A stretch of DNA of 64,000 nt from Candidatus Saccharimonadales bacterium (GTDB taxonomy: Bacteria; Patescibacteriota; Saccharimonadia; Saccharimonadales; JAGPDM01), in assembly GCA_044227985.1 (NCBI GenBank), contig JBGAVT010000003.1, positions 20,250 through 84,249 of the forward strand, read 5' to 3'. This document shows positions 25,722 to 63,465 of this stretch, piece by piece. Below the pieces are notes generated by a model. That model did no database searches and had not been told where the DNA came from. It saw only the letters and a list, made by a program, of their open reading frames with translations. Position 1 is the stretch's first letter. Every line of letters begins with the position of its first letter. The position numbers were made by a program, and so were the translations under genes.

Positions 25722-27125
<1,404 letters not shown>

Positions 27126-27132
27126 ATTGTTC

Positions 27133-27792: not shown

Positions 27793-27860
27793 TTTTGTTT
27801 TCGCTTGTTTAACTACCTTTGTAATACCATAAGCATAATATCAAAGTCAAGCATTATCTT

Positions 27861-28726: not shown

Positions 28727-28735
28727 TGGTATAAT
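28727..28735 (+). promoter_or_regulatory. extended -10 box 7 nt upstream of the leuD ATG
   Basis: TGgTATAAT-ttctact-ATG(28743). Confidence 0.5.
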
Positions 28736-28742
28736 TTCTACT

Positions 28743-29345: not shown

Positions 29346-29366
29346 ACGATGTGAGTCGTTCAAGTG

Positions 29367-30146: not shown

Positions 30147-30206
30147 AATCCTAGTATACAGTGCCTGCTTCGAGTTGTTGTATGTATATGATACAAATTA
30201 TATATA

Positions 30207-40496: not shown

Positions 40497-41063
40497 CTAG
40501 TAATCAATACCTTTATTTGCCATAAATTTATTATCGAAGTGATGTTTCAACTTAGTCATATTTGTAGCAATATCAACGTCGTTCAGTAAATCTTTGGGAA
40601 AATCACGACCGGTTAGACATAAACTAGTATCAGTATTTCTATTTTTTATCATATCTTTTACTTGCTCAGGCTTAATAAGCCCATCATGCATTGCATTGTT
40701 AATTTCATCACAGATTACCAGATCGAATTCACCACTTTGGGTGGCTTTGATCGCAAACTCGAGTGTTTCTTGAGCGGCTTGCTTGTGTTGATTATTACTA
40801 ATCCCAGCAGCACTCATTTCACCGGCATCATAAAATCCTTTGCCTCCGCGAAACATTTTCAAATTGTCTTGATAAATTGGTTCAATATCTTTGATGAACT
40901 GGTGTTCACCAACCTCCCAGTGTTTGATAAACTGCACGAAAGCTACGCGCCAGCCAGTCCCTAGCGCACGGACCAATAGGCCCAGTCCGGCGCTTGTTTT
41001 TCCTTTGCCCTCGCCTGTGTATACGATGACTACGGATGGTTTAGTTTCAAAATCTTCAAACAT
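40497..41063 (-). CDS. cob(I)yrinic acid a,c-diamide / cob(I)alamin adenosyltransferase (CobO/BtuR family)
   Basis: 188 aa: VIVYTGEGKGKTSAGLGLLVRALGTGWRVAFVQFIK...LVICDEIN, the P-loop CobA/CobO/BtuR pattern. Confidence 0.8.
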   Translation of the reverse strand: MFEDFETKPSVVIVYTGEGKGKTSAGLGLLVRALGTGWRVAFVQFIKHWEVGEHQFIKDIEPIYQDNLKMFRGGKGFYDAGEMSAAGISNNQHKQAAQETLEFAIKATQSGEFDLVICDEINNAMHDGLIKPEQVKDMIKNRNTDTSLCLTGRDFPKDLLNDVDIATNMTKLKHHFDNKFMANKGIDY

Positions 41064-45448: not shown

Positions 45449-46057
45449 TTATGTTTCAACAAACTCGATGCACCGAGCATGATGTGCTGCATCGATTTTG
45501 CCGAGCTCAAGCATGACATCTACCATTTCGCGAATTGTTGCGAAATGATGCAAGTTAACTCCTGCTTCTTGTAGTGCTATTTCTCCACCCTTGTTGTAAT
45601 CGAGTAGAACGGCTGCATCAGATATTCTTAGGTCGAATGACTGCAGTGCGGAAACAACCTCAAGCAGTGAAGTACCTTTAGTGGTAAGGTCTTCAATCAC
45701 TAATATTTCTTCTTGCTCATACCATTCACCTTCAAGCGCTTTCTGTAATCCATAGGCTTTTACGGCAGCCTCTTTGCGTAGAAAAATCCATGGTCGTTCC
45801 ATCTCGAGGCTGATTGCTCCTGCGATTGGGAGCGCCGCGTAGGCCACGCCGGCCAGCCGATCGAAGTGGATGTCTTTAATCATTTCTGAATAGACTTTAG
45901 CTACTTGTTTCATTAAAGCAGGATGGCTTATGAGTAGACGTAGGTCGATATACATAGGGCTTTCGATACCGCTTTTTAATGTAAAATCACCAAATTTGAG
46001 AGCTCCAATTTGGTTTAAAGCGATTGCTAGTTCATTTTTAGATATATTGTTCATCAT
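45449..46057 (-). CDS. pyrE: orotate phosphoribosyltransferase
   Basis: ALKFGDFTLKSGIESPMYIDLR...ILVIEDLTTKGTS PRPP-binding motif. I chose the start at the MMNNISK Met pair (46057/46054) after a GAGGGGG SD. It overlaps the pyrF 3' end. Confidence 0.88.
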   Translation of the reverse strand: MMNNISKNELAIALNQIGALKFGDFTLKSGIESPMYIDLRLLISHPALMKQVAKVYSEMIKDIHFDRLAGVAYAALPIAGAISLEMERPWIFLRKEAAVKAYGLQKALEGEWYEQEEILVIEDLTTKGTSLLEVVSALQSFDLRISDAAVLLDYNKGGEIALQEAGVNLHHFATIREMVDVMLELGKIDAAHHARCIEFVET

Positions 46058-46847
46058 TTGCCCCCTCTGTAATTTTTTGTATTGTTTTCTCGATATCCTG
46101 ATGAAGTTCAAGTGCTGCTTGGCGGGGATCTTCAGCGAATATGATGCTTCTGCTGGCAGATATTTGAACACCACCGAGTTGGTCATTTAATCCAGCGCGA
46201 AGTGATTGTTCAAGGTCACCGCCCTGAACCCCGATACCAGGGATTAATAGCGAGGTCTTGTTGCCAGCAAGGTTGCGTATGACTTCTAGCTCCTCGGGAT
46301 ATGTAGCGCCTGCAACCAAGCCTATTGTTGCGTTGACATCGAGCCCGCAAAAACTCTGTACTACACGCTTGTACACTTCTTCTCCTTCGACCACCTGTAA
46401 CTGCATTTCATCGCTACCAGGATTACTCGTACGAGCCAAGATGTATAGCGTCCGATCATATTCATAAAAAGGCGCTAATGCCTCAATCCCCATGTACGGT
46501 TGTAGCGTGACGGCATCAGCAGCTAAATAGTCGAAAACAAACGATGCATAGCCACGATTTGTGTTGCCGATGTCACCGCGCTTGGCGTCTATGATGATAT
46601 ATGTATCTGGGGCAACTTTACGAATGTAGTCACAGGTTTTTTTGAGATTCTCAATACCTCGAGCTCCATCAGCCTCATAAAATGCAGTATTCGGCTTGTA
46701 GCTGCCGGCAATGTCTTTTGTTTGATCAATTATTCGTTTATTGAATTCAAATTGATTAAGTGTTCCAATTTTCTCAATATCTGGGTCTAACCCAATAACT
46801 AGTGCATTTGTAGCAAGTTGTTTCCAGTCAAAATTCTGGGCATTCAT
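46038..46847 (-). CDS. pyrF: orotidine 5'-phosphate decarboxylase (type 2)
   Basis: 269 aa: LVIGLDP...IIIDAKRGDIGNT...LLIPGIGVQGG. TGcTATAGT lies 9 nt upstream of the ATG. Confidence 0.88.
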   Translation of the reverse strand: MNAQNFDWKQLATNALVIGLDPDIEKIGTLNQFEFNKRIIDQTKDIAGSYKPNTAFYEADGARGIENLKKTCDYIRKVAPDTYIIIDAKRGDIGNTNRGYASFVFDYLAADAVTLQPYMGIEALAPFYEYDRTLYILARTSNPGSDEMQLQVVEGEEVYKRVVQSFCGLDVNATIGLVAGATYPEELEVIRNLAGNKTSLLIPGIGVQGGDLEQSLRAGLNDQLGGVQISASRSIIFAEDPRQAALELHQDIEKTIQKITEGANDEQYI

Positions 46848-46922
46848 ATCTGTCTAACTATAGCATAATTGCGGATAGACTCTTCGCTGTTATATCAAAA
46901 TGATATTTGCTAAACTGATTGT

Positions 46923-48005
46923 ATGCAGGGTTTCTACGATCCAGATAAGACTTTTGATGACAATTTTGATAATGGTCCGTTTTTTGATGAAATTCCCGCG
47001 TTAGTTCGTGACGGAAAACCAGTTTTTAATTTTCTTGGACATCCAATTTATTTACCGTTTGGTATTGGGGCAGGTCCGCTGCCAACGAGCAAACACGTTG
47101 CCGCAGCTTTTAAATTTGGTTATGATGTAGTCCATTATAAAACCCAGCGTAGTTATAGCTTTGAGGCAAATGAGTTTCCGAATGTCATACCAGTTGAATC
47201 ATCACACGCTATAAGCCTCGAAGAAGCCGAATCAGGCTTAACAAAAGCTAATTCATATCCCGAAAATCTTTCTGAGCTCGTGATCACTAATTCATTTGGT
47301 AATCCTAGTCGTGGTCCGGACTTCTGGCAGGAAGACATGAAGAAGGCTGTTGAATCGGCCGGTGAAGGTCAAGTAATGGTTGCTAGCGCCGTCGGCTCAA
47401 TTAAAGATGGTTTTTCTGAAGAAGATTATTGGGACGATTTTGCTGCTACTGCTCTACTTTGCAAAGAAGCTGGCGCACCAATTATTGAACTCAATCTATC
47501 GTGCCCAAATGTCGCCAGCGAAGGCGTGGTTTGTTATAACCAAACTGCAGTTATGGAGATTGTGACGCGGGCAAAAGAAGAAATTGGCAATACACCGCTT
47601 TTGATAAAGCTTGGATATTTTGAGCCCAAACAACAAGAACTTCTAGAAAACATTGTTATGGCTGTAGAGCCATTTGTAGCTGGAATTGCCAGTATAAATA
47701 CATTATCGGCAGCAGTGCGCAATAGCGACGGTACACAGGCGCTACCTGGCGAAGGACGATTGAAGTCAGGCCTTTGTGGCGCCGGGATTAAATGGGCGGG
47801 TCTTGATATGGTCCGCCGATTGAGTGAAATTCGTGCCGACACCAGTCTGGAGTTTTCTATCATCGGTGTGGGCGGTGTTATGCAACCGTCTGATTATTTT
47901 GCATATCGCGAGCTAGGCGCTGACGTTGTTCAGTCATGCACTGCGCCGATGTGGAACCCAAATTTAGCACATGAGATACTGAGTGAAATTAGAAGTAATG
48001 TCTAA
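46923..48005 (+). CDS. pyrD: dihydroorotate dehydrogenase (class 1-like)
   Basis: 360 aa: NSFGNPS...IELNLSCPNV...LLIKLG...IIGVGGV TIM-barrel flavoenzyme motifs. TGcTAAACT lies 6 nt upstream of the ATG. Confidence 0.78.
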   Translation: MQGFYDPDKTFDDNFDNGPFFDEIPALVRDGKPVFNFLGHPIYLPFGIGAGPLPTSKHVAAAFKFGYDVVHYKTQRSYSFEANEFPNVIPVESSHAISLEEAESGLTKANSYPENLSELVITNSFGNPSRGPDFWQEDMKKAVESAGEGQVMVASAVGSIKDGFSEEDYWDDFAATALLCKEAGAPIIELNLSCPNVASEGVVCYNQTAVMEIVTRAKEEIGNTPLLIKLGYFEPKQQELLENIVMAVEPFVAGIASINTLSAAVRNSDGTQALPGEGRLKSGLCGAGIKWAGLDMVRRLSEIRADTSLEFSIIGVGGVMQPSDYFAYRELGADVVQSCTAPMWNPNLAHEILSEIRSNV

Positions 48006-48582
48006 TCCGATCGACCAAACTGATGAATCAAGCTTTAAGCCCATGGTGATTTTTGGTTCTGCAGCATCATTATTCCGTAGTTTTTTAATCTGGATTTTTG
48101 GCTTACCTGCCTACATGTTATTAACGATTGGCGTTGCAGGCGCACTTTTGATTACGCTCTTTCCGCTCAGCCAGAATCTTCAACCCGATTCAAGCGTTAG
48201 TGTTTCTGCACCACCTCCATCACTTTTGCTATCACCACCAACTTTCTCTGGAACGATTATGATGTGGATTGGACTGCTGATGATGCTGGCAGCATTCTCG
48301 ATTTTTATTCGTGCAATTCGCCGTTTTTTCGAAGCGAAGGTTTCTTTGTTTGAGCAGCATAGGCTGATTTTTCTTAACGCATTGAGTATTATTTCCTGGG
48401 GAGTTATATGGTTTAATCCAGTGGTGCGCCAATATGTTCCGACCTCAGTATTAAACGAGCTATATTTACTCGTTTTATTTGTGATTTTTATTAGTCTTGG
48501 TCTAGAAAGAATCTTTGAGCGCCGTCGTGAACATGTTGAAGAAACCGTATTTGGTAGCGAAATAGACGAGCAAGAGAAATAA
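47983..48582 (+). CDS. hypothetical membrane protein
   Basis: 199 aa with about 4 TM helices. Overlaps the pyrD 3' end by 23 nt. Confidence 0.5.
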   Translation: MKLEVMSNPIDQTDESSFKPMVIFGSAASLFRSFLIWIFGLPAYMLLTIGVAGALLITLFPLSQNLQPDSSVSVSAPPPSLLLSPPTFSGTIMMWIGLLMMLAAFSIFIRAIRRFFEAKVSLFEQHRLIFLNALSIISWGVIWFNPVVRQYVPTSVLNELYLLVLFVIFISLGLERIFERRREHVEETVFGSEIDEQEK

Positions 48583-48594
48583 TTCTGGCTAGGA

Positions 48595-49653
48595 TTACAG
48601 AACTCTTTTAGCGTTAACTGCTTTCTCGTGATCGATAACACCATCTTGCATAACAGACTCGCTGTTTAGAAAAACATTCTGTACACGACCGAAAACCCTC
48701 TTACCTTCGAATGGCGACCACTTGGCTTTACTCTGCGAGTTCTTTGCACTGTAGAAGTACGATTCCTCATTTATTTCAATATAGTTTGTATCGTCAAGTT
48801 TTAAGTTAAATAATCTTATAGGACAATTATGGGTAAGATCAAGTAGTTTTTCACGACTCAAGCGGTTCTCTTGTTCGGCTTGCAAGAGCAATGGCAAGGT
48901 CGACTCGAGTCCAGGAATACCAAATGCACCAGCTTTTTTGTCGGTTAACGTGTGTGGTGCGTGGTCGCTTTCTATTAAGTCAATTGCATCTAAATTATCC
49001 CAAAGGAACTGTACATCTTTTTTGCTTTTTAATGACGGTTTCATCTGAGCAAATTCACCAATCCGTACTCCATCTTCTTCATCTAAGAAAAGATGGTGAG
49101 GTGTCACACCGCATGTAACGTTTCGACCTTTGTTTTTAGCACGAATAATTTTTGTTAAAATTTCTTGGCTTGGCATATGGGCTACATGAATGTGACGGTC
49201 GGATGACTCTAACGATTGAATCGCTAAATCGATTGTTGACTCTTCGGTATGTAGTACTATCGGTTTATCTTTTGGCCAACGTTCATAAATCTCAGCCAGT
49301 TTATTGAGGTCTAGCACGTAGCCACCGGTTGTAATATTTAGGTATAGCTTTAAGGCCACCGCTTTTTTACTTGCTTCTTCAAATGTGTCGAGATTATCGC
49401 CAAGCGAGCCGTAGTAAAAGCCTATATTACTAAGTGCTTTTTGCTCACCAAGATTGCGTTTCTCATCAAGCCGTTCAATTGTTGTAATCGGCTTTGAAGT
49501 GTTCGGCATATCGAGCACCGTTGTGAAGCCACCAGCTAAAGCGGCTGCCGTGCCACTAGCTAAGTCTTCTTTTTCGTTTTGGCCTGGTTCTCGTAAGTGA
49601 ACGTGCACATCGATGAGTCCGGGTAATGTAATCATACTTCTATTATTGCACAC
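48595..49653 (-). CDS. pyrC: dihydroorotase
   Basis: LPGLIDVHVHLREPG...GGFTTVLDMPNT...DHAPH metal-dependent amidohydrolase motifs. GTG 49653 after GGGAGA; an alternative ATG lies at 49635. Confidence 0.88.
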   Translation of the reverse strand: MCNNRSMITLPGLIDVHVHLREPGQNEKEDLASGTAAALAGGFTTVLDMPNTSKPITTIERLDEKRNLGEQKALSNIGFYYGSLGDNLDTFEEASKKAVALKLYLNITTGGYVLDLNKLAEIYERWPKDKPIVLHTEESTIDLAIQSLESSDRHIHVAHMPSQEILTKIIRAKNKGRNVTCGVTPHHLFLDEEDGVRIGEFAQMKPSLKSKKDVQFLWDNLDAIDLIESDHAPHTLTDKKAGAFGIPGLESTLPLLLQAEQENRLSREKLLDLTHNCPIRLFNLKLDDTNYIEINEESYFYSAKNSQSKAKWSPFEGKRVFGRVQNVFLNSESVMQDGVIDHEKAVNAKRVL

Positions 49654-49712
49654 CTTGATGTCTCCCTGAGAAGAATTTCTGTTATAATTTATGGAAACGA
49701 AAGTGAGGTTCT

Positions 49713-50633
49713 ATGGCATTAGCAAATCGATCATTAGTGGCGATTAACGATTTTGGTAAAGATGAGTGGCTCGAGGTTTTGGATGAGGCTACGGTTATAA
49801 AGCAATCTGGATTAACCTCTCGATCTGATGTATTAAAAGGCAGAATAGTAGCTACCCTCTTCTTTGAAGCTTCAACAAGAACCCGAATGAGTTTCCAAGC
49901 GGCAATCCAAAGACTTGGTGGTGATGTAATCGGTTTTTCGAGCGCATCAATGACAAGCGTTAAAAAAGGCGAAAGCCTAGAAGATACGATTCGTATGGTC
50001 AATGGTTACGCCGATGCCATCGTCATTCGTCATCCTGAAATTGGAGCTGCAAGCCGCGCTCTTGCCGTTTCAGATGTCCCTGTCATCAATGCTGGCGATG
50101 GCGCAAATGAACACCCGACACAGACATTGCTCGATCTTTTCTCAATACAGGAAACTCAAGGCAAACTCGATAATCTGCACATTGGATTTGGTGGCGACAA
50201 TCGATACAGCCGAACTACGCATTCTCTCGTTAAAGCTTTGGCAGCTTTTGATAATAATACGATGGAGTTTATCTCGCCAGATGAGTTGACGCTGCCGCGA
50301 GAACTTCGAGAATTTTTACAAAATAATAGTGTACAATTTTCCGAAACTGATCAGCTTGAAATGGTTCTCGATGATCTTGATACGCTTTATCTTCCTCGAA
50401 TTCAAAAAGAACGCTTTGAGGACCAAGCGGTCTTTGAAAAAGTAAAAAATGTATACCGTTTTGGTCAGGCGCATCTTGATATGACAAAAGAGAACTTCAG
50501 ATTGTTCTCCCCTCTACCTCGTATCGACGAAATCGACACGGCGATTGATGACGATCCCAAGTCGTACTATTTCAAGCAAGCTGCAAACGGTGTGCCAGTT
50601 CGCATGGCTTTACTTCAAAAAATCCTCGGCTGA
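49713..50633 (+). CDS. pyrB: aspartate carbamoyltransferase catalytic subunit
   Basis: 306 aa: FFEASTRTRMSF...HPTQTLLD...LSPLPR. TGtTATAAT (49680-49688) is followed by a 24-nt leader with GTGAGG. Confidence 0.92.
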   Translation: MALANRSLVAINDFGKDEWLEVLDEATVIKQSGLTSRSDVLKGRIVATLFFEASTRTRMSFQAAIQRLGGDVIGFSSASMTSVKKGESLEDTIRMVNGYADAIVIRHPEIGAASRALAVSDVPVINAGDGANEHPTQTLLDLFSIQETQGKLDNLHIGFGGDNRYSRTTHSLVKALAAFDNNTMEFISPDELTLPRELREFLQNNSVQFSETDQLEMVLDDLDTLYLPRIQKERFEDQAVFEKVKNVYRFGQAHLDMTKENFRLFSPLPRIDEIDTAIDDDPKSYYFKQAANGVPVRMALLQKILG

Positions 50634-50650
50634 TTCATCTGTATAAAATA

Positions 50651-50679
50651 TTGACAAAATAGTTATAAAACTATATTAT
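50651..50679 (+). promoter_or_regulatory. promoter of orphan gene 50702
   Basis: TTGACA (50651-50656), a 17-nt spacer, TATTAT (50674-50679). GGAG lies at 50692-50695 before the ATG. Confidence 0.55.
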
Positions 50680-50701
50680 ATTTTTATAATTTGGAGAAAA
50701 T

Positions 50702-52249
50702 ATGTCTGATACCGAACATGACGTTTTAGAAATGCTTGTTGAAGCAAGGAATTTAGAAAGACAAAATTTCAATTTTTATCAGGAAGAAATTGAACCAGCA
50801 ACATCAATAAGTTCTGACGCTATTGATTTAGATAGTAGAGGTATACCTGTCGCGGATCGATTAACTCCTACGAATATGGCAGATTTTTACCGAAGAGCTG
50901 GCTCTTTCATAGAAACGGCTAGCGCATTTACAGGCGATAGTGATACTTTTCCACTAAGATCTGCACGTATAGATGGTGAAAGATTAGTTTATTCACCAGC
51001 AAGAGATAAAGCTCACCAACTCGATGTGTACTCTGAACAGATGGCGAACGTTTTGGCTAGTGGAGAGCTATATGTCGGCCAGTCGCCCGGAGAAACAACT
51101 AATGAGGTATTCGGCAGAAATTTTGGCGGAGATGAAAAGCTCCCACCAGTTACTTTCGTCGATGTGCTGGATACGTTACGCGGAGTTTATCGAGAACAAG
51201 GTGGCCGTGGTACTAAAATGGGTTCATTACTGAGGACACAACTCGAGCATGTTAAGGATGATGAATACTACCGGGCAAATCAACCCGAGCTCTACTCAAT
51301 GTTTGCGGACGGAATAATGGAGATAATCGACGATGGCGAAGCCGAGCTTGACCCTGAACGCGGAATCCAAAAGAGAGGACAACGTATTGAAGAAAGCGAT
51401 AAATCTCCTAATGTTTTGAGAATGCTGGCATATGCCGACGCAGTTGCCCCTCTCTTTGAAAGTGGCGATGAAGAAACTAGTGATGCTGTCTTTCTCCAAA
51501 TATTAGATACGGTTAAGCGGCACACCAAAGCGATGGACGAAATCGATAGAGTGGACGTTATTGATCGTTTATTTATTGATTTTACAGGAGCCAACAAACA
51601 ACGTAGAAATTTACTCCAGCCTGGAGCTAGAAAAGCACAAGAAGCAATCATGGCCGCGTTTATAACAATGGATATGAGGGATGCTAGTAAAAAATTAGAC
51701 TTGGATTGTCGGCAATTAGACCAAAAATTAATGACGTATGACAAAGTGGACTACATGCAGCACGCCAGTTCTGTAACTCGTCAATGGAGGAACGTTGAAA
51801 GATTTGTCGAATTTGCAGGGGCAGATAAATGCGATGAATTATTTCATAGAACTGATGGATTTGATGATCTTGATGAATTAGATATGAGTAAACCTTTGGA
51901 TGTTGTATTTTATGACTATACCACATCATTTAGTAATACAATCTTTAATCCGAAAGTAGACGAACTTGGATGGGCGGTACCTCGCTCATCTGCAAGCATT
52001 ATTATGACTCTCGAGCCACGAATAAGCCACGAAGATATCGACAGCTTAAAGGGTCTCCATAAAAAGTTATATCTTGATCCTCTCAATAGGCATCTCTCGC
52101 CACCCGCTCCTTATCCCCAAACTGTTCCTGGTGCTAGAAGCGAATATGTTCAAAGAATGACTAAGATTTTGAGTCGATTTAGTGTTAATCCAAGTGATGG
52201 ATATGATAGTGAGCAAAATTTTACTGGTTTACCAAATATCAAAAATTAG
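50702..52249 (+). CDS. large acidic hypothetical protein (515 aa)
   Basis: Long uninterrupted ORF with its own consensus-like promoter and SD. I recognised no family. Confidence 0.65.
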   Translation: MSDTEHDVLEMLVEARNLERQNFNFYQEEIEPATSISSDAIDLDSRGIPVADRLTPTNMADFYRRAGSFIETASAFTGDSDTFPLRSARIDGERLVYSPARDKAHQLDVYSEQMANVLASGELYVGQSPGETTNEVFGRNFGGDEKLPPVTFVDVLDTLRGVYREQGGRGTKMGSLLRTQLEHVKDDEYYRANQPELYSMFADGIMEIIDDGEAELDPERGIQKRGQRIEESDKSPNVLRMLAYADAVAPLFESGDEETSDAVFLQILDTVKRHTKAMDEIDRVDVIDRLFIDFTGANKQRRNLLQPGARKAQEAIMAAFITMDMRDASKKLDLDCRQLDQKLMTYDKVDYMQHASSVTRQWRNVERFVEFAGADKCDELFHRTDGFDDLDELDMSKPLDVVFYDYTTSFSNTIFNPKVDELGWAVPRSSASIIMTLEPRISHEDIDSLKGLHKKLYLDPLNRHLSPPAPYPQTVPGARSEYVQRMTKILSRFSVNPSDGYDSEQNFTGLPNIKN

Positions 52250-52764
52250 AAATTTTCCAAAAATATTTCAGCTTGTTTGTGCGACTTTAATATCACGGAA
52301 TCCGTAGAAGTTTCATGTAGCGCTGTTGTGATTCTGCTTTTATGAATTGTGTGCCAACGATAGATATATTTTAGAAATGTCCAATTAAGGGTTTCTTGCC
52401 ACTGCGGATGCATACCTGGCCGCGATTTTTTATGGTATTTAAATCTTCTTTTTAAGACTCCCCAGTAACAAATAACCAATGGGATATCTAGAAAAATCAC
52501 CAAGTCAGCAGCTTCAAACCGTTCAAGGATTACCGAACCGTCGTTGCCGTCGATGATCCATTTTTTTGGCTTGTTTAGTGTTAATGAAAACTCTTTCCAA
52601 GCCTCACGATTATGTAAATAGTCCTTTTCAGGATCAAGAAAGAAATAATCCGAATGAATCAATGGAAGATTAGTCTTTTTTTGGAGCTCAAAAGCAAAGG
52701 TCGTCTTGCCTGCTCCGGGCGAGCCTACAACTGCTATGCGGTTTATTTGCTTAGTCCGTGCCAT
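52246..52764 (-). CDS. P-loop NTPase, adenylate-kinase-like (topology modulation protein FlaR-like)
   Basis: 172 aa with Walker [12 protein letters not shown]. Overlaps the carB 3' end by 22 nt, so it is the last gene of the carAB transcription unit. Confidence 0.65.
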
Positions 52765-55700
52765 GATTGGAGGGAGCGGACACTAAATTTTTCATCTGCA
52801 TTCTCTATAGCATCAACTATTGCTTCGGCAGCGAAAATGGTTGTCGCTATCGGGACGTTGTTTTTGCGTGTTGCGATTCTGATGTAATCTCCATCAGCTT
52901 TTGCACCTCGTCCCATTGGCGTATTGATAACGAGTTTAATTAAACCACTATTGATAAGATTGGCTGCGTTGGTTCCATCGTGCGTTTCGCCGTCAGCTGT
53001 AACTTTGGCAACTTCAATTGCGACTTGGACAAATTGTTCTTTGAGATATTTAGATGTACCACCCGTAGCAGCAATTGTGAATCCGAGCTCGATGAATTTT
53101 CGAGCAATTGGCAACAGTGCTTCTTTGTCGCGATTGGCAACCGACAAGAAAACGGTACCAGCATGAGGGATATCATCCCCGCCTGCAACCAGTGCTTTGG
53201 CAAAACTTGTCGCAAAATTATCCGAAACACCCATAACTTCTCCGGTGCTACGCATCTCTGGACCTAGAATTGAATCAGCATCTGCAAAGCGGCTGAATGG
53301 GAAAACCGGTTGTTTGACTGCTACGAGTTTTGAATCGTGCACATTCTGGATTCGATTATGATCATCAATTTTAAATTTATAGACTTTACTCAAGTCTTTT
53401 AACGATTCGCCGAGCATAATTCGAGTAGCAATCTTTATCAGTGGAACACCGATAGCTTTAGCAACAAATGGAACAGTACGACTGGCACGTGGGTTGGCTT
53501 CGATGACATAGACTTCCTCATTTTTTATAGCAAACTGAACGTTTAGTAAACCCACCACTTCAAGGTTCTTAGCGAGCTTTTCAGTTACCTCGATAAGCTT
53601 ACGCGTGACTTTCTCAGATAGGAATTCGGCTGGTATCGCGCAAGCGCTGTCGCCACTGTGGATGCCGGCTTCTTCGACGTGTTGCATGATACCACCGATG
53701 TGAGTCATGCCCGTTTTGTCCCGCAAGGCATCGACATCCACTTCCGTGGCTGACTCTAGAAAATGATCGATTAGTACTGGACGGTTTTTACTCAACCCGC
53801 CTTCTCGACCAAGACTCCCGTCGGCTTTAATTTCCTTTAAGGCATTTTTAAGATCAGCATCATTATAGGCAATCTGCATAGCTCTACCACCGAGAACGTA
53901 ACTTGGCCGAACCAAGACGGGGTAGCCAACTTCTTCAGCGATCTTCAACGAATCTGTAGTATTGGTGGCTGTTCCACCTGCAGGCTGAGCAATTTTAAGT
54001 TTTTTACATAGCTTATTCCACTCGTCACGATCCTCGGCTAAGTCGATACTTTTGGGTGATGTTCCTAGAACTAGTTTTGGATCGATTTGATCAGCCAGCT
54101 TTAGTGGGGTTTGTCCGCCGAGGCTAACGATAACACCGTCAGGATTTTCAAGTTCGATGATATTCTGGGCATCTTCAAAAGTTAGTGGTTCGAAATAGAG
54201 TCGGTCACTGGTGTCATAGTCGGTGCTGACAGTTTCTGGGTTGCAATTAATCATTATTGATTCGTAGCCGGCCTCTTGCAGTGCAAAACTAGCATGGACA
54301 CAAGCATAGTCGAATTCAATTCCTTGCCCGATTCGATTCGGTCCACTACCTAGAATAATAACCTTCTTATTCTTTGACGGTTGGGCCTCATTCTCATCTT
54401 CCCAGGTTGAGTAAAAGTACGGTGTTTCAGCTGCGAACTCAGCGGCACAGGTGTCGACCGTCTTGTAGGTTGGTAATACATCTAGCTTTTGTCGGTATTC
54501 TTTAACCTTACTCATTGGTTCGCCAAGAATGTATCCGAGCTGAGCATCAGCAAAACCGAGTTGCTTCAGCTGTTTCATTTCTTGTTTTTTTACGTCTTCT
54601 AGATTTTTGCCTTTGAGGCTTTTTCTAGCTTCGGAAACTCGCGCCATCTGTACGAGAAACCATAGATCATAGCCGCAGCTTTTACTAATTTCGTCCAAAT
54701 CAACTCCACGACGAATCAATTCTTCTACTGCATATATCCGGTCAGGATTAGCGGTTGCCACATCCGCTAGTAGCTTATTAGTTTCAATTTTTTTGAACTC
54801 AGCCTCACCTTCATCAGAATTAAGCCCAAGCCGTCCCTGCTCAAGGCTTCGCAGAGCTTTCTGCAAGCTTTCAGGAAAAGTACGGCCTATTGCCATGACC
54901 TCACCAACCGATTGCATTTGCGTGCCAAGAATAGCTGGGATGTCTGGAAATTTCTCAAAGGTCCATCGTGGGACCTTGGTCACAACATAGTCTATGGCCG
55001 GTTCGAAACTGGCCGGTGTTTGTTTAGTTATATCGTTCTGAATTTCATCAAGTCGGTACCCTACTGCGAGAAGCGCAGCTATTTTAGCGATTGGAAAACC
55101 AGTAGCTTTACTAGCAAGTGCTGAACTGCGTGAAACACGCGGGTTCATCTCGATAACAACTTGCTCGCCATTTTCTGGATTAACTGCGAATTGGACATTG
55201 CTGCCACCAGTTTCGACGCCAACGCGGCGCAATACGGCAAATGATGCATCACGCATTTCTTGATATTCACGGTCACTTAACGTCTGTGCGGGAGCTACGG
55301 TAATTGAATCACCGGTGTGTACGCCCATTGCATCTACGTTCTCTATGGCGCAAATGATAACGCAGTTATCAGCATTATCGCGCATAACTTCCATTTCAAA
55401 TTCTTTCCAACCTTTTAGCGATTGTTCAACAAGAATCTCGCCGATTGGACTGGCTTTAATGCCAAATTCAACGAGTTTTTCAAATTCTTCTTCGGTGTTT
55501 GCGATTCCAGTACCCTTTCCACCAAGGATATAAGCTGGACGGATAATCATTGGCAGGCCGATTTTTTCTTTGATTGCCTGAGCTTCTAACGGGGTATGAG
55601 CAGTGCCAGATCGGGCTGACTTCAGGCCGATCTCGTCCATCGCTTCTTTGAATACTTGACGATTTTCGGCGGTATTGATCGATTCGGCAGTTGCGCCAAT

Positions 55701-56045
55701 CATTTCGACATTGTGTTTCTTCAGGATGCCCAACTGCTCGATTTCCATAGCTAGGTTGAGGGCAGTTTGTCCGCCGAGAGTTGGTAGAAGTGCATCAGGT
55801 TTCTCTAATTCTATGATGCTCTCCAAGACCGAAGCTGTCAGTGGTTCTATATACGTTGCGTCAGCAAAATCAGGGTCTGTCATAATCGTAGCCGGGTTAG
55901 AATTCGCCAAAATAATTCTATAGCCTTCTTCGCGTAAAATCTTACAAGCCTGTGTACCTGAATAGTCGAACTCACAGGCTTGACCGATCACGATTGGGCC
56001 ACTTCCAATTATCAAGATACTTTTAATGTCAGTTCGTTTAGGCAT
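52743..56045 (-). CDS. carB: carbamoyl-phosphate synthase large subunit
   Basis: 1100 aa with duplicated ATP-grasp modules and an MGS-like C-terminal domain. Long blocks are identical to the CarB consensus ([40 protein letters not shown]). Confidence 0.96.
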
Positions 56046-56181
56046 GATTATTCTCCATCATTTTCTTAAAATCAGTAAACAGATAATGCGCATCGTGCGG
56101 TCCCGGTCCAGCTTCGGGATGGTGCTGCACACTCATGGCGTTATATTTTTTACTTTTGATTCCCTCAACGACTTGGTCGTG
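56038..56181 (-). other. carA: carA 3' segment (47 codons), same frame, directly after the internal TAA
   Basis: Translates as [47 protein letters not shown], the conserved CarA C-terminus. Its stop overlaps the carB ATG (56045) by 8 nt. Confidence 0.85.
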
Positions 56182-57114
56182 TTATTTTAGATGATTAACA
56201 TCGACAACTTTAAGGCTTTTTTCATCAACTGCGAAGTTATGGTTTTGACTAGTTATTTCAACGATATTTGTTTGGTAGTTCATGACTGGATGATTGGCGC
56301 CGTGATGGCCAAACTCTAGTTTGTAAGTTTTAGCACCGAGAGCGCTACAAAGTAGTTGTTGCCCGAGGCAAATTCCAAAAATTTGAACTTTCCCGAGAAG
56401 CTTTTTAATCGTCTCGATTTGAAGTGCGAGAATGCTCGGATCTCCTGGGCCATTACTTAAAAAGATGCCGTCTGGTTTTAGTGCCAATATGTCGTCAGCT
56501 GTTGTCGATGCTGGCACGACGGTAACCTTTGCGAGGCTCGCCAGTTGTTCGACGATTGAAGTTTTCATACCGTAGTCGATAGCAACTATACGTAAGTCTC
56601 CTTTCCCGATTTTGTTGATTGATTCGTTAGTTACGAATTCAACAAAGTTAAATTCGCTTGTTGCTGGCTCCTCTTTGGCTGCCGCGAGGAGTTGATTGTA
56701 GCTGGCGCGTCCAAATGCAGCATTTTGTGAGCCATGGCTTCGTATATGTTTAGTAAGCGCGCGCGTGTCGATTCCACTCAAAACAGACAAATCGTTCGTT
56801 GTCAGATATCGATCAAGAGACGCTGTGCTTTTAAAGTTGCTTGGAACCAAAGAAAGGTCTCTGACAATAACGCCACGAGCATAGACCTCGTTTGATTCAT
56901 TATCGAGCTTATTCGTTCCGTAGTTACCTATATGTGGATAGGTAAAAGTTATAATTTGGCCAGCGTAGCTCGGATCACTGATAATTTCTTGGTAACCGCT
57001 CATAGAAGTATTGAATACGATCTCACCGCTACTTATGCGCTGCTCTGCTCCGTATAGCGTTCCTTCAAAGCTTCGCCCATCTGCCAACACTAATTGATCT
57101 ATTATCTCGTCCAT
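56182..57114 (-). CDS. carA: carbamoyl-phosphate synthase small subunit, first 310 codons up to an in-frame TAA
   Basis: LVLADGRSFEG...TFTYPHIGNYG...IFGICLGQQLL (nucleophile Cys). The ORF ends VDVNHLK-TAA at 56184-56182. Confidence 0.9.
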   Translation of the reverse strand: MDEIIDQLVLADGRSFEGTLYGAEQRISSGEIVFNTSMSGYQEIISDPSYAGQIITFTYPHIGNYGTNKLDNESNEVYARGVIVRDLSLVPSNFKSTASLDRYLTTNDLSVLSGIDTRALTKHIRSHGSQNAAFGRASYNQLLAAAKEEPATSEFNFVEFVTNESINKIGKGDLRIVAIDYGMKTSIVEQLASLAKVTVVPASTTADDILALKPDGIFLSNGPGDPSILALQIETIKKLLGKVQIFGICLGQQLLCSALGAKTYKLEFGHHGANHPVMNYQTNIVEITSQNHNFAVDEKSLKVVDVNHLK

Positions 57115-57138
57115 CGATTGCCTTTCTTATTTTCAGGC

Positions 57139-57169
57139 AAAAAAATAACACTTCCGCGAGTGAAGTGTT
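57139..57169 (-). terminator. intrinsic-terminator-like hairpin plus U-run inside the carA 5' leader (candidate attenuator)
   Basis: Minus strand: AACACTTC-actcgcg-GAAGTGTT followed by ATTTTTTTG, 24 nt before the carA ATG and downstream of the carA promoter. Confidence 0.6.
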
Positions 57170-57206
57170 TTTGAACCGTCCAATGTATTGTTACCATTGA
57201 GATTTT

Positions 57207-57235
57207 ATTATATTCCGAAAGCTCTATATACGCAA
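57207..57235 (-). promoter_or_regulatory. carA promoter
   Basis: Minus strand: TTGCGT (57235-57230), a 17-nt spacer, TATAAT (57212-57207). Confidence 0.6.
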
Positions 57236-57331
57236 ACGCTATTTTGTGGGAATAAAAGTTTAATCACTAATGCTTACTATGCAATAATACTTTATTGACT
57301 TAGTTATTATATTTATGTATAAATAATACAA

Positions 57332-58975
57332 ATGAGCGCAACTGTTGTAGATCAGCTAGACACAGAATTGACCGATAGGTTGGTGGAGTCTATCAAAAGC
57401 TCGAAAGCTGAAATACTAGACTCAGTCAACTCCCTCTTCGAATCAGATGGGTGTGAAGCTGTTGTTAGAATGCTCAATCCTGGCCTTGCCCTAGATCCTT
57501 TGGATATGGGTGAAGAACTTCCTGGAAGCCTTGTTGTGTTAGACCCAATAGATGACCTTGGAATAGAAGCAACTTTTGCTATTTTCAAGGCATCTGCTCA
57601 AACCACAGAGGAACAGACAAAAAAACCAAAGCGACGAATTTTCAATATAAAATCAAATGATTATGGTCCTGAAGGTAGTCGTAATGATTCTTTTACAGAG
57701 ATTGAAGAGAGCTCCACTTTTGGTGTTTTGATCAGGGGAAATGTATTCTTGCCATTGGTTATTTTCAGCGACGGCCAAACTCTCCCAGAAATTGAGATAA
57801 TAAAATTAGGTACTGACTCAGTCGATCTCGAAGCGGTAGGCGGATCTAGGTCAGTTGAATTACAGCGCGATAAGGTTCTCTTAAGTAAAATTGCAACAGT
57901 AGTTTCTCCAGACAGAAAATCTTTCGATGACAGAGCGGCTATGCTTGCAAATAATGCTGAGCTACGTAGATATGAACCAAATCCACTTTTACTTTCAAAA
58001 GGAAGAAACAATATAGATAGGATGCTCGAGCGAGCGACGTTTGATTTTGGAAACAACGAATTGGTTACAAGATGCCTAGACTTGCTGGAAGCTGAAGAAC
58101 AACTCATTATAGAGGAATCATCTGGTGATTATTGGGAGAGATATCAGGAGATGCTTGAACCACTTGCTTTAATGGCTTTGATATACGAATTTACAGATAC
58201 TGAGCCAACGCCACAACAAGCAGAAATCAACCAAAGAATTATCTCAGCTTATGAAACAATGTTAACAATCGATTTTTATAAAGAACAAATACGGTTTGCA
58301 GACAAGCAACTTAAAAATGATGAGCTTTTAAGAAAAGCAGATAAAAGATTGCGAGATCCGACAAAAGCACTTTTTGACAGATTAGAAGGTATACTACATA
58401 TAAAACAACGCACTCGATCTACACCCAAGATAACTACCGAAGATGTGGTTAAATTTCATGCAGAAAGAATAACTGCCGCAAACGATGAGCCAATAACTTT
58501 AACTGATATATTAAATGTTCTTGATGGAGATAAAAAGCCCGAAGACAGAGTGACGCCTAAAATCGTAAGAGATGCCTTTGTTAGTGAAGACTTCATAAGT
58601 AGTGAAGCTTTGGAGAGGCATGAGAGGATTATGTCTCTCTCAGCTTCGCTTGGGAGATTAGCTGGCGTAGATGGTAGGCCATTGGTTGTAGGAAAGTGGG
58701 AAGGTCATTTACCAGAAGATAACCCACAAGGGACACTTAATTTTCAGTTGTCTCTAAGGCAGTCTGCGGCTGGTTTTCTGGCTGTTTATCATAGTGGATA
58801 CAGTTCAAAAACTGATCCTAAACTAAGTGGTGATCCAGAAAGAGCACTTGAAGTTACACCACGAGGTGTTCGTGCTGGAGAGGTTATGATAAGTTGGTTG
58901 ACTGGAGATCAAGAACGAGAGCCAGGAATTCTGAGACTACTGGAAGAATTTTCGAAGCGTAGTGCTAAAAAATAA
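57332..58975 (+). CDS. large hypothetical protein (547 aa)
   Basis: Long uninterrupted ORF. TGTATAAAT ends 7 nt before the ATG. I recognised no family. Confidence 0.65.
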   Translation: MSATVVDQLDTELTDRLVESIKSSKAEILDSVNSLFESDGCEAVVRMLNPGLALDPLDMGEELPGSLVVLDPIDDLGIEATFAIFKASAQTTEEQTKKPKRRIFNIKSNDYGPEGSRNDSFTEIEESSTFGVLIRGNVFLPLVIFSDGQTLPEIEIIKLGTDSVDLEAVGGSRSVELQRDKVLLSKIATVVSPDRKSFDDRAAMLANNAELRRYEPNPLLLSKGRNNIDRMLERATFDFGNNELVTRCLDLLEAEEQLIIEESSGDYWERYQEMLEPLALMALIYEFTDTEPTPQQAEINQRIISAYETMLTIDFYKEQIRFADKQLKNDELLRKADKRLRDPTKALFDRLEGILHIKQRTRSTPKITTEDVVKFHAERITAANDEPITLTDILNVLDGDKKPEDRVTPKIVRDAFVSEDFISSEALERHERIMSLSASLGRLAGVDGRPLVVGKWEGHLPEDNPQGTLNFQLSLRQSAAGFLAVYHSGYSSKTDPKLSGDPERALEVTPRGVRAGEVMISWLTGDQEREPGILRLLEEFSKRSAKK

Positions 58976-59015
58976 TCTAGTATTAATTAAGCTAGTTTAA
59001 TTAATACAGAAATAT

Positions 59016-59555
59016 TTACTCGAGAATCCAATCTTGTTTAAATGGAGCTAAAGCAATGACTAATGCATCTCTATTGCTCGTGGTTCGAGTAATGTGATTA
59101 TTAGTTGACATGCCTGCGTAACCGTCTAACTTTCCTATATCTTTCTTATTGAGTTTTTCTTCAAGTACTGCGCTTAAATCAAAATCTGCCGTCACATGTT
59201 TGGCGAGATATTCTGGTACAAAATAGCGTGGTGTGCCTGCAGTCCCTTTTTCTCCATTTCTATCACGAACCACCACCCAGTCACTGACAAACCACATATC
59301 ATTAACAAAATACATGCCACCTTCCATGCCAATAGCAAAATCTGCGTCAGAATTGTCGAATACAAATTGAGCACGGTTGTTGGCGCCAAGAATAGATTCA
59401 GCTTCACTCATTGGTTGTTCGTTGACCCCGGACGGTGCGGCGATACCTGAAAAAACGAACTTATGATTAGGGAAAGCAATCGCAAATGCCTGTTGTGCTG
59501 CATCAATCTTAGTCGGATTCTCCGAGCCGACAGCAACTTTTTCTAATATATTCAT
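59016..59555 (-). CDS. inosine/xanthosine triphosphatase (YjjX/DUF84 family non-canonical NTPase)
   Basis: 179 aa: VAVGSENPTKIDAAQQAF...GVNEQPMSEAE...GMEGG. AGGAGA SD upstream. Confidence 0.75.
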   Translation of the reverse strand: MNILEKVAVGSENPTKIDAAQQAFAIAFPNHKFVFSGIAAPSGVNEQPMSEAESILGANNRAQFVFDNSDADFAIGMEGGMYFVNDMWFVSDWVVVRDRNGEKGTAGTPRYFVPEYLAKHVTADFDLSAVLEEKLNKKDIGKLDGYAGMSTNNHITRTTSNRDALVIALAPFKQDWILE

Positions 59556-59792
59556 TTTCTCTCCTGAAGTTAGTTGTTAAATTGTAGCAATTATCAACTT
59601 TGATCGAAAGTCTCCCAAAAATCAGAATATAAGCTATGAAAAAACTAAAAAATGTATTGCATGAATATGGCTCAACTGATAGAATATCTGCTGTTAGATG
59701 AACAAAATTACATGCAAACATGTTGGGGGTGGCGTATTGCTTCCTGTCGGTAGCCTATTTGTTGATGCATCTACAAAAAATCGAGAGTCGCT

Positions 59793-60674
59793 ATGAGTGC
59801 GGCTCTTTTTAATGTAGCTCGATTCTTCGCGAGTGAAGAAGGTCCCCACATCAGCTTAAAAGCTGAGCAGATTGGTAAATTTGGCCCGATTACTTATACC
59901 AATAGTATGCTTTACACGCTAGTTGTTGCTGCATTCATCTTGGTACTTGCCTGGTTTATTGGTCGTAAGGTTACTTTCAAGCCACAAAAAGGTATTGTTC
60001 AGCTTCTAGAAATCCCTGTTGAATTTGTTATAGACATGCTCGAAGGCATCTTCGGTAACCGCAAGCAGGCTGTTAAATTCGCGCCAATTTTCTCTGTTTA
60101 TTTCATCTTCATCATGGTCAGCAATCTTTCTGGGCTTATGCCGTTTGTCGGGCATGGCATCGTAGCAGGAGAGTTTCCTGCTTTTCGTCCTTTTACAGCC
60201 GATTTGAATGGTGTTATTGCAATGGCTATTTTTTCTATAGTCGCAGTACAAGTTCTATCAATTCGTGAGCAAGGTCTTAAGGGGCATATGCAGCATTTCT
60301 TCAGCGACAAACCGAAAAATCCAATTAATTTTTTTGTTGGAATTCTTGAGGTTCTTGGTGAGTTTACACGAATTATTAGTCTTAGCCTTCGACTATTTCT
60401 TAATACAGTTATCGGTGAGATTCTTATCTCTGTTTTCATTTTCATCAGCGGGAATGCTACGCCATTAACTTTAATTGTACTGTTTCTGTTTGAGGGATTA
60501 GTTGCATATATTCAGGCGTATATTTTTACCGTTTTGTCGGCTACCTATCTCGGCCTAGCTGTTGCCCATCATCACGATGAGGAGCACGAAAAGAGCATTA
60601 TCGGCTCTGAGACCGACCCATCACATTTTGTTCACCCAAGCACCGAACTACATGCTAGTAAGGCGCAGAAGTGA
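59793..60674 (+). CDS. atpB: F0F1 ATP synthase subunit a
   Basis: 293 aa polytopic: ...ISLSLRLFLNTVIGEIL (essential Arg helix)...AYIQAYIFTVLSATYL. Carries an unusual ~45-aa His/Glu-rich C-terminal tail. Confidence 0.9.
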   Translation: MSAALFNVARFFASEEGPHISLKAEQIGKFGPITYTNSMLYTLVVAAFILVLAWFIGRKVTFKPQKGIVQLLEIPVEFVIDMLEGIFGNRKQAVKFAPIFSVYFIFIMVSNLSGLMPFVGHGIVAGEFPAFRPFTADLNGVIAMAIFSIVAVQVLSIREQGLKGHMQHFFSDKPKNPINFFVGILEVLGEFTRIISLSLRLFLNTVIGEILISVFIFISGNATPLTLIVLFLFEGLVAYIQAYIFTVLSATYLGLAVAHHHDEEHEKSIIGSETDPSHFVHPSTELHASKAQK

Positions 60675-60714
60675 AGAAGCCAATAAAAGTAACCAAATTA
60701 GGGAAGGAGAAAAT

Positions 60715-60957
60715 ATGGTTTCATTATTAACAACTCTAGCAGCGGTCGAACTGACTGATGCTGGTTTTAAAATGCTCGGAGTAGCTCTCGTGATTTCTTG
60801 CGCATCATTGTCGCTTGGAATGATCGGTGCTAACTACATGAAAGCACTTGGACGAAATCCAGAAGCTGGTAAAGCTGCTGGTTCAATCGTGATCCTAGCT
60901 GCATTCGTAGAAGCGACTGCACTGTTCGCATTGATCGCTGGTGTAATAATCAGCTAG
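60715..60957 (+). CDS. atpE: F0F1 ATP synthase subunit c
   Basis: 80 aa hairpin with loop RNPE and a TM2 carboxylate in AAFVEATALFA. GGAAGGAG SD upstream. The ORF track extends it artificially to 60562. Confidence 0.9.
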   Translation: MVSLLTTLAAVELTDAGFKMLGVALVISCASLSLGMIGANYMKALGRNPEAGKAAGSIVILAAFVEATALFALIAGVIIS

Positions 60958-60978
60958 TACTGAATAATAGGAGAAAAC

Positions 60979-61545
60979 ATGAACGTACCGTTACAATTTT
61001 TACAATTTGCATCTGAAGCAGCTCAACACGGCGAAAAAGCCGAGGAAGCCGGTGGGTTAGCTACCTTTGGTATCGACCCTATCGCAATACTGCTTCAGGG
61101 CGGTGCGTTCGTGGTCCTATTTATTTTATTTCGAAAGTTTGCACTGAAGAAAGTTGTCGGCATTCTCGACGACCGTCACCAGACGATCGAGGAGAGTCTC
61201 GAAAACGCCAAGCAGATAGAAGCCTCATTGAAAAATGCTCAGAAACAACATGAAGAGATGTTGGCTGAATCTCGACGTGAGGCAGACAAAATCATTACTA
61301 GTGCTAAGAATGAAGGTCGTACACTTGTAACTGATAGTGGTAAAAAAGCTGTCGAAAATGCAACTCGCATGGTTCAAGAAGCTCATAACAAAATCGAACA
61401 AGACGTAGCTGATGCTCGTCGAGACCTGCAGAAAGAGGTTAAGACATTGGTTGCTGATGCAACTGAAGCAATTTTGCGTGAAAAGATTGATGATAAATCT
61501 GATAGTGCGCTGATCGATGCGGCCATTAAGGACGCTAGCAAATGA
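60979..61545 (+). CDS. atpF: F0F1 ATP synthase subunit b
   Basis: 188 aa: one N-terminal TM helix, then a long charged helix. Position in the operon supports the call. Confidence 0.85.
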   Translation: MNVPLQFLQFASEAAQHGEKAEEAGGLATFGIDPIAILLQGGAFVVLFILFRKFALKKVVGILDDRHQTIEESLENAKQIEASLKNAQKQHEEMLAESRREADKIITSAKNEGRTLVTDSGKKAVENATRMVQEAHNKIEQDVADARRDLQKEVKTLVADATEAILREKIDDKSDSALIDAAIKDASK

Positions 61546-61919
61546 CCAACAAAGCAATTGCCCGCGGTTTTGTCGCTCGCCTATCTCAGACTAATGAAGC
61601 TGAAGCTGTTAAAGAGCTAGCGGCGCTTGTTATTCTGAATAAGAAAACCAAAGGTATGCAATTTATTATCGAAGAAATCAGAAATGAAATTGATCGAGTT
61701 AATCGTCACGTGATAGCCGATGTCGGTAGTGTTAGAAAAATTTCTGATAAGCAATTGTTTGAAATTGAACAACTTGTCAAGAAAATGACTGAAGCTAAAA
61801 CAGTACAACTCGAAACCTATCTCAACCCGGAATTAATTGGAGGCTTCAAAATCTCTGCACCAAATTTCGAGTATGATGCATCGGTAGCAACTAAGATTAG
61901 ACAACTAAAAGGAGTATAA
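61542..61919 (+). CDS. atpH: F0F1 ATP synthase subunit delta (short, 125 aa)
   Basis: OSCP-like C-terminus ([29 protein letters not shown]). Operon position supports the call. It lacks about 50 N-terminal residues relative to typical delta subunits. Confidence 0.75.
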
Positions 61920-61920
61920 G

Positions 61921-63465
61921 ATGGCAGGAGTAGATATTTCCCTGAAAGACCTATCAAGTGAACTAAAGGCTGCGATTGATGATTTGCGCGATGCGCCCGA
62001 AGCGACTAAGAACGGAATTGTGACCCGAGTTGGCGACGGAATTGCCTGGATTTTTGGATTAAATGACGCTGGATATAACGAAATGATTGAGATTGAAACG
62101 ACTAAAGGCGACCGAGTTACTGCTTTCGCGCTTAACTTAATGGAAGACGAGATCGGAGCTGTTATTCTCGGCGATGACACTGATGTGGTTTCTGGTGCTA
62201 AAGTTCATATGACTGGTAAAGTTGTTGAAGTACCAGTTGGCCCAGAATTGATTGGTCGCGTGATTGACCCACTTGGTCGTCCACTTGATGGCAAAGGTCC
62301 GATCAAGACAAAGCAGACTGATTTTGTTGAGAAGCTTGCTCCTGGTGTCATGGATCGAAAATCAGTTCATGAACCTGTTATGACCGGTATTATGTCTATC
62401 GATGCCATGATTCCTATCGGTCGTGGTCAGCGTGAGTTGATTATTGGTGATCGTAAAACAGGAAAAACAGCCGTTGCAATCGATACTATGATTAACCAGG
62501 CTCGCCAAGATTCTGATATCGTCAGTATCTATGTAGCAATCGGACAGAAGAACGCTACGGTTGCTCGACTTGTTGAACGACTCCGAAAAGAAGGCGTTAT
62601 GGATAAAGCTATCGTTATCTCGACTTCAGCTTCTGACCCTGCTCCACTCCAGTTCCTCGCTCCGTACGCGGGTGCAACAATTGGTGAATATTTCCGCGAC
62701 AATAAACAGCACGCTTTGATTATTTACGATGATCTTTCAAAGCATGCTGTTGCATATCGTCAGATGTCACTATTACTCCGTCGTCCACCAGGACGTGAGG
62801 CTTACCCGGGTGACGTTTTCTACCTACACTCACGCTTGCTTGAACGTTCAGCCAAGATGAGCGATGAAAAAGGTGCAGGATCATTGACTGCCCTCCCAAT
62901 CATCGAAACTCAGGCTGATGATATCTCGGCTTTCGTTCCAACTAACGTCATCTCTATTACTGATGGACAGATTTTCTTGAAATCTGATCTATTCAACAAA
63001 GGTGTTCGTCCGGCTGTCGACGTTGGTCTATCGGTCTCCCGAGTTGGTGGTGCTGCTCAAAAACCAAACCTTAAGAAGGTTTCAGGGAATATGCGACTTG
63101 AATTGGCGCAGTTCCGTGAACTGGAAGCTTTTTCACAGTTCTCAAGCGATCTTGATGAAGATACCAAGTCAAAGATTGAGCGTGGTAAGCGACTTACTGA
63201 ACTGCTGAAGCAGCCGCAGTATTCACCGCTTAGCCTAGCTGAGCAAGTTGCTATCGTCGTAGCTGCAACTGGTGGAAATTTTGACACTATTCCAGTTGAT
63301 CACATGGTTGAAGCCAAGACGAAATTCGTCAAGCAACTACACAGTGAACACAAAAAACTTGTAACTACACTCAGTAAAGGCGATAAGCCGACACCTGAAG
63401 TAATGACTGAGATAAAATTATTAGCTGATTCAGTCGCAGCTCAATATGAGGACAAGAGCGAATAA
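61921..63465 (+). CDS. atpA: F0F1 ATP synthase subunit alpha
   Basis: 514 aa: GDRKTGKTA Walker [42 protein letters not shown]. Confidence 0.96.

Follow-up and report, generated by a model that had tools for sequence, protein, structure and literature searches.

The window analysed here, a 64,000-nucleotide stretch of a Candidatus Saccharimonadales contig, carries a gene for the small, glutamine-hydrolysing subunit of carbamoyl-phosphate synthase (carA) whose reading frame is interrupted by an in-frame TAA. The question is whether this codon marks a gene that has died, a gene whose stop is read through or recoded, or a fault in the deposited sequence. Read on the minus strand, the frame runs from 57114 to 56038 (1077 nt, 359 codons): 310 sense codons, the last of which encode ...VVDVNHLK, the TAA at 56184-56182, 47 further sense codons, and a second TAA at 56040-56038. 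The arrangement is thus present as the original prediction had described it. The features to which the argument refers are the following.

52743-56045, minus strand: carB, the large subunit (1100 aa), intact (NF003671, 1586.9 bits).
56038-57114, minus strand: conceptual full-length carA, glutamine-hydrolysing carbamoyl-phosphate synthase small subunit, 358 codons including the internal TAA, followed by the terminal TAA.
56041-56181, minus strand: C-terminal remnant of 47 codons, holding the triad residues His332 and Glu334 within a ten-residue block.
56181-56212, minus strand: dense patch of nine private transversions in 32 bp; every covering locus has the reference state.
56182-56184, minus strand: in-frame TAA, where the intact allele reads TTA (Leu311); the two differ by a single T>A at window position 56183.
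56182-57114, minus strand: N-terminal ORF of 310 aa as deposited, with the in-frame TAA; identical to the database protein P0122.
56359-56384, minus strand: two private transversions flanking the catalytic Cys; 56384 gives P244Q and 56359 gives H252Q (GICLGHQ to GICLGQQ).

Profile searches leave no doubt about what the gene is. The 310-aa piece contains the CPSase_sm_chain domain (Pfam, E=4e-49) and, of the GATase domain, the initial two thirds (positions 2-138 of the 190 in the profile). Positions 151-189 of the same GATase profile are matched by the 47-aa piece (E=2.5e-8), which also aligns to positions 319-360 of the 361 in TIGR01368 (E=9e-15), so that the joined product spans GATase positions 2-189 of 190. 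This formal match bears out the proposal that the codons 3' of the stop encode the CarA C terminus. TIGR01368 and NF009475 are the CarA equivalog models; on the former, with a curated cut-off of 307.35 bits, the 310-aa piece scores 368.8 bits over model positions 2-310 only, and an uninterrupted relative of the conceptual product (P0001, see below) scores 454.6 bits over positions 2-360 of 361. The relative is exactly 358 aa long, the normal CarA length that had been anticipated from the sum of 310, 1, and 47 codons. Also as reported, the end of carA overlaps the carB ATG (56045) by 8 nt; the two genes are co-oriented, and carB is identical across all sister contigs. The gene is therefore an ordinary carA, the intact allele having the equivalog score, the domain architecture, the nucleophile motif, and the coupling to carB that belong to that family.

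Against this family background (TIGR01368), the conceptual product agrees with CarA in domain order, in its length of 358 aa, in the aligned positions of its Cys-His-Glu triad, and in the 8-nt overlap with carB, and the deposited sequence departs from it in two respects. First, the stop splits the triad: Cys249 (codon 56370-56368) lies in the 310-aa ORF before the TAA and His332 and Glu334 lie after it, so that the three are not on one polypeptide, whereas in the intact allele of all sister contigs the triad is unsplit. Second, the PxFGICLGHQ nucleophile motif reads QIFGICLGQQ. The Cys had correctly been placed in GICLGQQ, but the motif itself is altered, GICLGHQ being the form in 119/121 homologs. 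The catalytic residues themselves, which align to C269, H353, and E355 of E. coli CarA, are unchanged. It is only because of a small group of substitutions, considered next, that the deposited sequence lacks a triad on one polypeptide and an intact GICLGHQ.

A protein search with the conceptual product returned P0001, which is 98% identical, uninterrupted, and encoded on at least 18 metagenome contigs. The carA DNA is identical in the first ten of these contigs that were fetched, and the window differs from each by the same 11 substitutions. Across the affected region the intact DNA is identical in all 13 fully covering independent samples, five from JGI (3300056625, 3300056626, 3300056759, 3300056789, and 3300027924) and eight from Logan (SRR26425191, SRR26424594, SRR26425194, SRR26424591, SRR28520274, SRR28892615, SRR28892617, and SRR26425193); one additional sample is partial and covers the last three of the 11 sites only. 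The stop is found in none of the sister assemblies, and every fully covering sample has the intact 358-aa carA. One of the Logan contigs (L047) ends inside the patch. This end was considered as a possible mark of a bubble in the assembly graph and was set aside as a coincidence, the contig having the reference allele up to its final base.

The disagreement is confined to carA over a considerable distance. An alignment of window positions 51038-62114 to one sister contig (L002) comprises 11,077 bases with 11 mismatches and no gaps, and all of the mismatches are in carA. We then compared the sister-strain contigs over window positions 1-62115, calling a difference private when all covering contigs disagree with the window. 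Outside carA, the private differences amount to three isolated transitions (19823 and 42151, both synonymous, and 32450, an Ala>Val change in tRNA-guanine transglycosylase) and one patch of five substitutions in a pilin-like ORF. Only one NCBI contig, of 89,508 bp and evidently the source of the window, is on record as encoding the 310-aa product (P0122), and exact look-up of the window's 310-aa CarA, pilin, and tRNA-guanine transglycosylase alleles found no record beyond that one contig. A scan of metagenome_contigs in which the nine dense-patch sites were wildcarded, using a pattern verified on the window and 14 loci, gave no match, yet it also missed the reference allele from the JGI samples, which this collection lacks.

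The pilin-like patch merits description in its own right. It lies at 40175-40188 within ORF 39807-40496 (plus strand) and consists of five substitutions in 14 bp, three transitions and two transversions, that yield I123M, S124N, V126E, and V128I. The eight sister contigs available there (8/8) agree with each other, and the window allele is on record from the same NCBI contig only. Either another local error or genuine pilin variation could account for this patch; as a second dense private patch, it fits a record with occasional local errors.

The carA substitutions fall in a patch of 204 bp (56181-56384), nine of them within 32 bp. Numbered from the start of the gene they are at positions 731, 756, 903, 908, 915, 918, 920, 926, 930, 932, and 934, corresponding to window positions 56384, 56359, 56212, 56207, 56200, 56197, 56195, 56189, 56185, 56183, and 56181. 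From the frequency of the other private differences, 0.03 substitutions would be expected in 204 bp, where 11 are observed (Poisson P ~5e-25). Their character is as unusual as their density. The patch has no transitions and 11 transversions, versus 198 transitions and 70 transversions in the natural polymorphism (Fisher P=7e-7), and two synonymous and nine non-synonymous changes, where the background has 193 and 67 (P=2e-4); natural variation among these contigs is thus 74% transitions and 74% synonymous. On the sense strand the changes are C>A (four), G>T (three), A>T (two), T>A (one), and A>C (one), or, by base pair, G:C>T:A (seven), A:T>T:A (three), and A:T>C:G (one). By way of comparison, carA of the nearest species-representative genome (CAZUNB010000007.1, locus L023; CarA 94% identical in amino acid sequence) differs from the reference at 196 sites, 141 of them transitions and 55 transversions, and with this genome as outgroup 10 of the 11 sites have the derived state in the window. 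What sets the patch apart is its restriction to a single record, its extreme density, and a mutation spectrum and coding effect that are both atypical.

The dense part of the patch produces D303V, E305D, T307N, R309L, N310K, L311*, and N312H, together with two synonymous changes. The severity of these replacements is apparent from an alignment of 121 homologs and E. coli CarA. Leu311, the residue at the stop, is invariant in the 121 homologs and corresponds to L332 of E. coli CarA; Pro244 and Asn312 are likewise invariant, Asn310 is kept in 120 and His252 in 119 homologs, and Thr307 in 113, the remainder having Ser. Five of the eight missense changes (P244Q, H252Q, T307N, N310K, and N312H) are thus at invariant or near-invariant residues of CarA, and at six of the nine altered positions the window's residue is absent from all 121 homologs. 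These data bear on several elements of the original prediction. Alignment of the conceptual 358-aa product to CarA profiles, one of the checks it had proposed, places both pieces in the family and gives Leu as the residue of homologs at the stop. The 3' piece had been called intact, which is accurate for 46 of its 47 residues; it is not fully so because its first codon differs from that of the intact allele (N312H). A very recent nonsense mutation, taken as a single event, is refuted by the eight missense changes that accompany the stop.

Read-through or recoding of the TAA, with production of a full-length 358-aa CarA, was another of the readings offered, and all that speaks for it is the preserved frame, the intact 3' piece, and the retained coupling to carB that had already been noted. 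A conserved frame is, however, to be expected in any case since all of the changes are substitutions. The stop occurs in none of the 13 fully covering same-strain samples and in none of the 121 homologs, all of which have Leu. TAA is also the commonest ordinary stop here, terminating 35 of the 76 long ORFs in the window, carA and carB among them, which excludes a global reassignment of the codon. Moreover, a read-through product would still bear P244Q, H252Q, T307N, N310K, and N312H, with H252Q beside the catalytic Cys. Programmed recoding (selenocysteine at UGA, pyrrolysine at UAG, or leaky readthrough) resembles the present case in that a conserved enzyme is interrupted by an in-frame stop and the frame beyond it is intact, but the codon here is UAA, it is conserved in no relative, and it stands amid other damaging substitutions. 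To our knowledge, recoding in bacteria involves UGA (selenocysteine) or UAG (pyrrolysine) and not UAA. A search of the 64-kb window for tRNA genes, among which a suppressor might have been found, detected none. We therefore regard functional recoding as extremely improbable. Expression as a two-piece enzyme by re-initiation was rejected as well: the first in-frame start is the ATG at codon 327 (56136), 15 codons past the stop, and therefore no restart would give such an enzyme.

Import of the patch by homologous recombination, whether from a diverged carA or by gene conversion from a paralogous GATase gene, is equally hard to credit. Tracts of clustered differences do occur in this population and serve as a natural control for the carA patch. 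They are found in sister contigs at 29267-31256 (L049 and L051, with differences often 3 nt apart), 52282-52669 and 58779-58804 (L003), and 49134-49859 (L018); they consist mostly of transitions and look like natural strain-level recombination. Such tracts, for example 29267-31256 and 52282-52669, are transition-rich and mostly synonymous, whereas the patch has 0/11 transitions, 9/11 non-synonymous changes, and residues that no homolog has. The next relative (L023, protein P0121) bears the reference residues, and the same variant string is found neither among 8000 scored homologs nor in the P0001 cluster. No donor for gene conversion or templated mutagenesis was found in the window, including the TrpG-like GATase gene at 641-1267; one 10-nt inverted match ~300 nt upstream (~56500) spans only two of the 11 sites and would arise by chance with a probability of ~0.03. 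A recombinational origin is accordingly about as remote as recoding.

A diversity-generating retroelement was also considered, as a source of dense substitutions. Mutagenesis by these elements is adenine-specific. The reference bases changed on the sense strand are C (four), G (three), A (three), and T (one), so that adenine accounts for 3/11 on the sense strand and 1/11 on the antisense strand; this lack of adenine specificity excludes such an element. Taken together, all explanations other than a technical artefact and a real multi-hit mutation appear very improbable.

The principal rival is that the patch is real and that one localized event introduced 11 transversions, killing the glutaminase subunit and leaving a very young carA pseudogene. 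Possible causes would be error-prone repair synthesis through heavily damaged DNA, or a short fragment of damaged DNA that this pilus-bearing bacterium took up and integrated. The stop is, after all, present in the deposited record, and the three natural-looking private transitions indicate that the record represents a distinct genotype. G:C>T:A and A:T>T:A, which together account for 10 of the 11 substitutions, are the classes that arise from 8-oxoguanine and from bypass of abasic sites, and the several changes at invariant residues would fit a gene freed from selection. However, the damage classes are split across the strands, with five purine>T changes on the sense strand and five on the antisense strand, which is a misfit to a single damaged strand. 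The allele is a singleton, the intact gene being present in 13 samples; neither the rest of carA nor the surrounding ~62 kb displays decay or similar changes; and the window offers no donor or template. The pattern is also not that of a pseudogene in evolution, given a singleton allele and 0/11 transitions against the 198/70 background (P=7e-7). We know of no established bacterial mechanism, diversity-generating retroelements excepted, that routinely gives nine substitutions in 32 bp. On balance we consider a real localized mutation unlikely, and the more specific version, a single hypermutation through an oxidised or depurinated fragment acquired via the type IV pilus or competence, or through error-prone gap filling, more doubtful still. 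Were it true, the CarA glutaminase would have been inactivated instantly, with carB and the pyrimidine pathway left intact.

The evidence favours a technical origin, which we infer from the comparison of assemblies: the patch and its TAA probably reflect a local artefact of assembly or sequencing rather than a gene that has died or been recoded. The stop is one of 11 clustered changes unique to one record and is therefore most likely due to a local error of this kind. Of the explanations that had been put forward, a base-call error comes closest, in that an error is the option best supported, but in place of a single miscalled base there is a patch of 11 private transversions. The TAA would then be no biological feature but part of a 204-bp patch private to this deposited contig of a metagenome-assembled genome, where the consensus may derive from reads that were in error or gave it little support; the patch-bearing carA would subsequently have been annotated by gene callers as a CarA truncated to 310 aa. 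Most likely, the gene that the organism really has is the uninterrupted carA of 358 aa present in every other assembly of the strain, translationally coupled to carB.

Errors of this type have precedent. Local assembly errors, short stretches that not a single read supports perfectly, have been documented in metagenome-assembled genomes; one CPR genome of 1.13 Mb contained 13, and the resulting wrong gene sequences propagate to databases (Chen, Anantharaman, Shaiber, Eren and Banfield, 2020; PMC7111523). The present case resembles these in being a short, gene-corrupting stretch within an otherwise correct contig and at odds with the population, all 11 mismatches to L002 lying within 204 bp and the remaining ~10.9 kb of the alignment having none. 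It differs in that no all-transversion signature is described in that study, and in that the error class is defined there by read support and here by comparison of assemblies. Many internal-stop pseudogenes in public genomes have likewise been identified as assembly artefacts, with links to low coverage and to the choice of assembler (Cooley and Wright, 2024; PMC11017572). An internal stop in one assembly that is absent from near-identical neighbours (>99.9% identity) is the situation found here, and such incongruence is that paper's criterion for artefacts, although the paper concerns isolate genomes and stops per genome and our case is a single locus with a stop plus 10 substitutions.

Some observations sit less easily with an error. 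There is no second all-transversion patch in 62 kb, so the assembly is not generally error-ridden. The three isolated private transitions make the record a slightly distinct genotype, which could in principle have a real mutation of its own. A low-quality read tail is an awkward source, as perfect identity resumes abruptly after gene position 934, beyond the densest errors, and perfect identity directly after such errors would be hard for a de Bruijn assembler to bridge. Oxidative or abasic-site damage in vivo, moreover, gives the same spectrum.

The sister contigs contain irregularities of their own. In three long JGI contigs (L001, L012, and L013, from samples 3300056625 and 3300056626) there are many private 1-bp indels, mostly of a single A or T, that split NTPase, ilvD, and ATP synthase genes, for example at window positions 4650, 8946, 12308, 59243, and 61341-61907. 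Indel errors of 1 bp are typical of long reads, and these private gene-splitting indels indicate that gene-breaking assembly errors are common among the records of this organism. In another JGI contig (Ga0268731_1002305; L021:9699-9825) the last 127 nt match window positions 28718-28844 in reversed orientation, skipping 28139-28717. No inverted repeat was found at the breakpoints, the nearest being a 24-nt, 83% complementary pair (28037-28060 and 28792-28815); this may be a chimeric contig end or an inversion of ~0.7 kb adjoining a pilin-like gene.

The remainder of the window provides the genomic setting. The carAB genes are flanked by two large plus-strand ORFs with no Pfam match recorded, 50702-52249 (515 aa) and 57332-58975 (547 aa); both are conserved in the sister contigs, and a 1-bp indel splits the 547-aa ORF in a few of them. 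By Pfam labels, the window holds a complete pyrB/C/D/F/E set in addition to carAB, trpE/G/D/C-F with a Trp-repressor-like gene, leuB/C/D, ilvD, and genes for Suf Fe-S assembly, a cytochrome P450, a transketolase, and the F-type ATPase, with the biosynthesis genes spanning 641-2676, 11852-13576, 20097-29345, 45449-57114, and 59793-63465. Such biosynthetic richness would be unusual for genomes of Saccharibacteria (CPR). A -10-like TAnWWT box (often TGnTATAAT) ends 3-10 nt before the start codon of 11 of 43 genes, versus 5% of random positions, with examples upstream of 6918, 9135, 13612, 25722, 28743, and 40497-41063 (minus strand); this sequence pattern suggests that many mRNAs are leaderless in this Saccharibacterium.

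What the locus says about the organism depends on which reading is adopted. The pyrimidine pathway had been described as otherwise intact, and pyrB, pyrC, pyrD, pyrF, pyrE, and carB are indeed intact within the window; the accompanying claim, that glutamine-dependent carbamoyl-phosphate synthesis is lost, holds only if the deposited sequence is real. The truncated 310-aa protein is already a separate sequence in public protein collections. The value of the case lies in caution and in method, since the spectrum and clustering of private differences relative to same-strain assemblies can sort spurious from real pseudogenes without recourse to reads. Taken at face value, the record would describe a Saccharibacterium without glutamine-dependent carbamoyl-phosphate synthesis, or one that reads through UAA; if the patch is an artefact, as is probable, both descriptions would be wrong.
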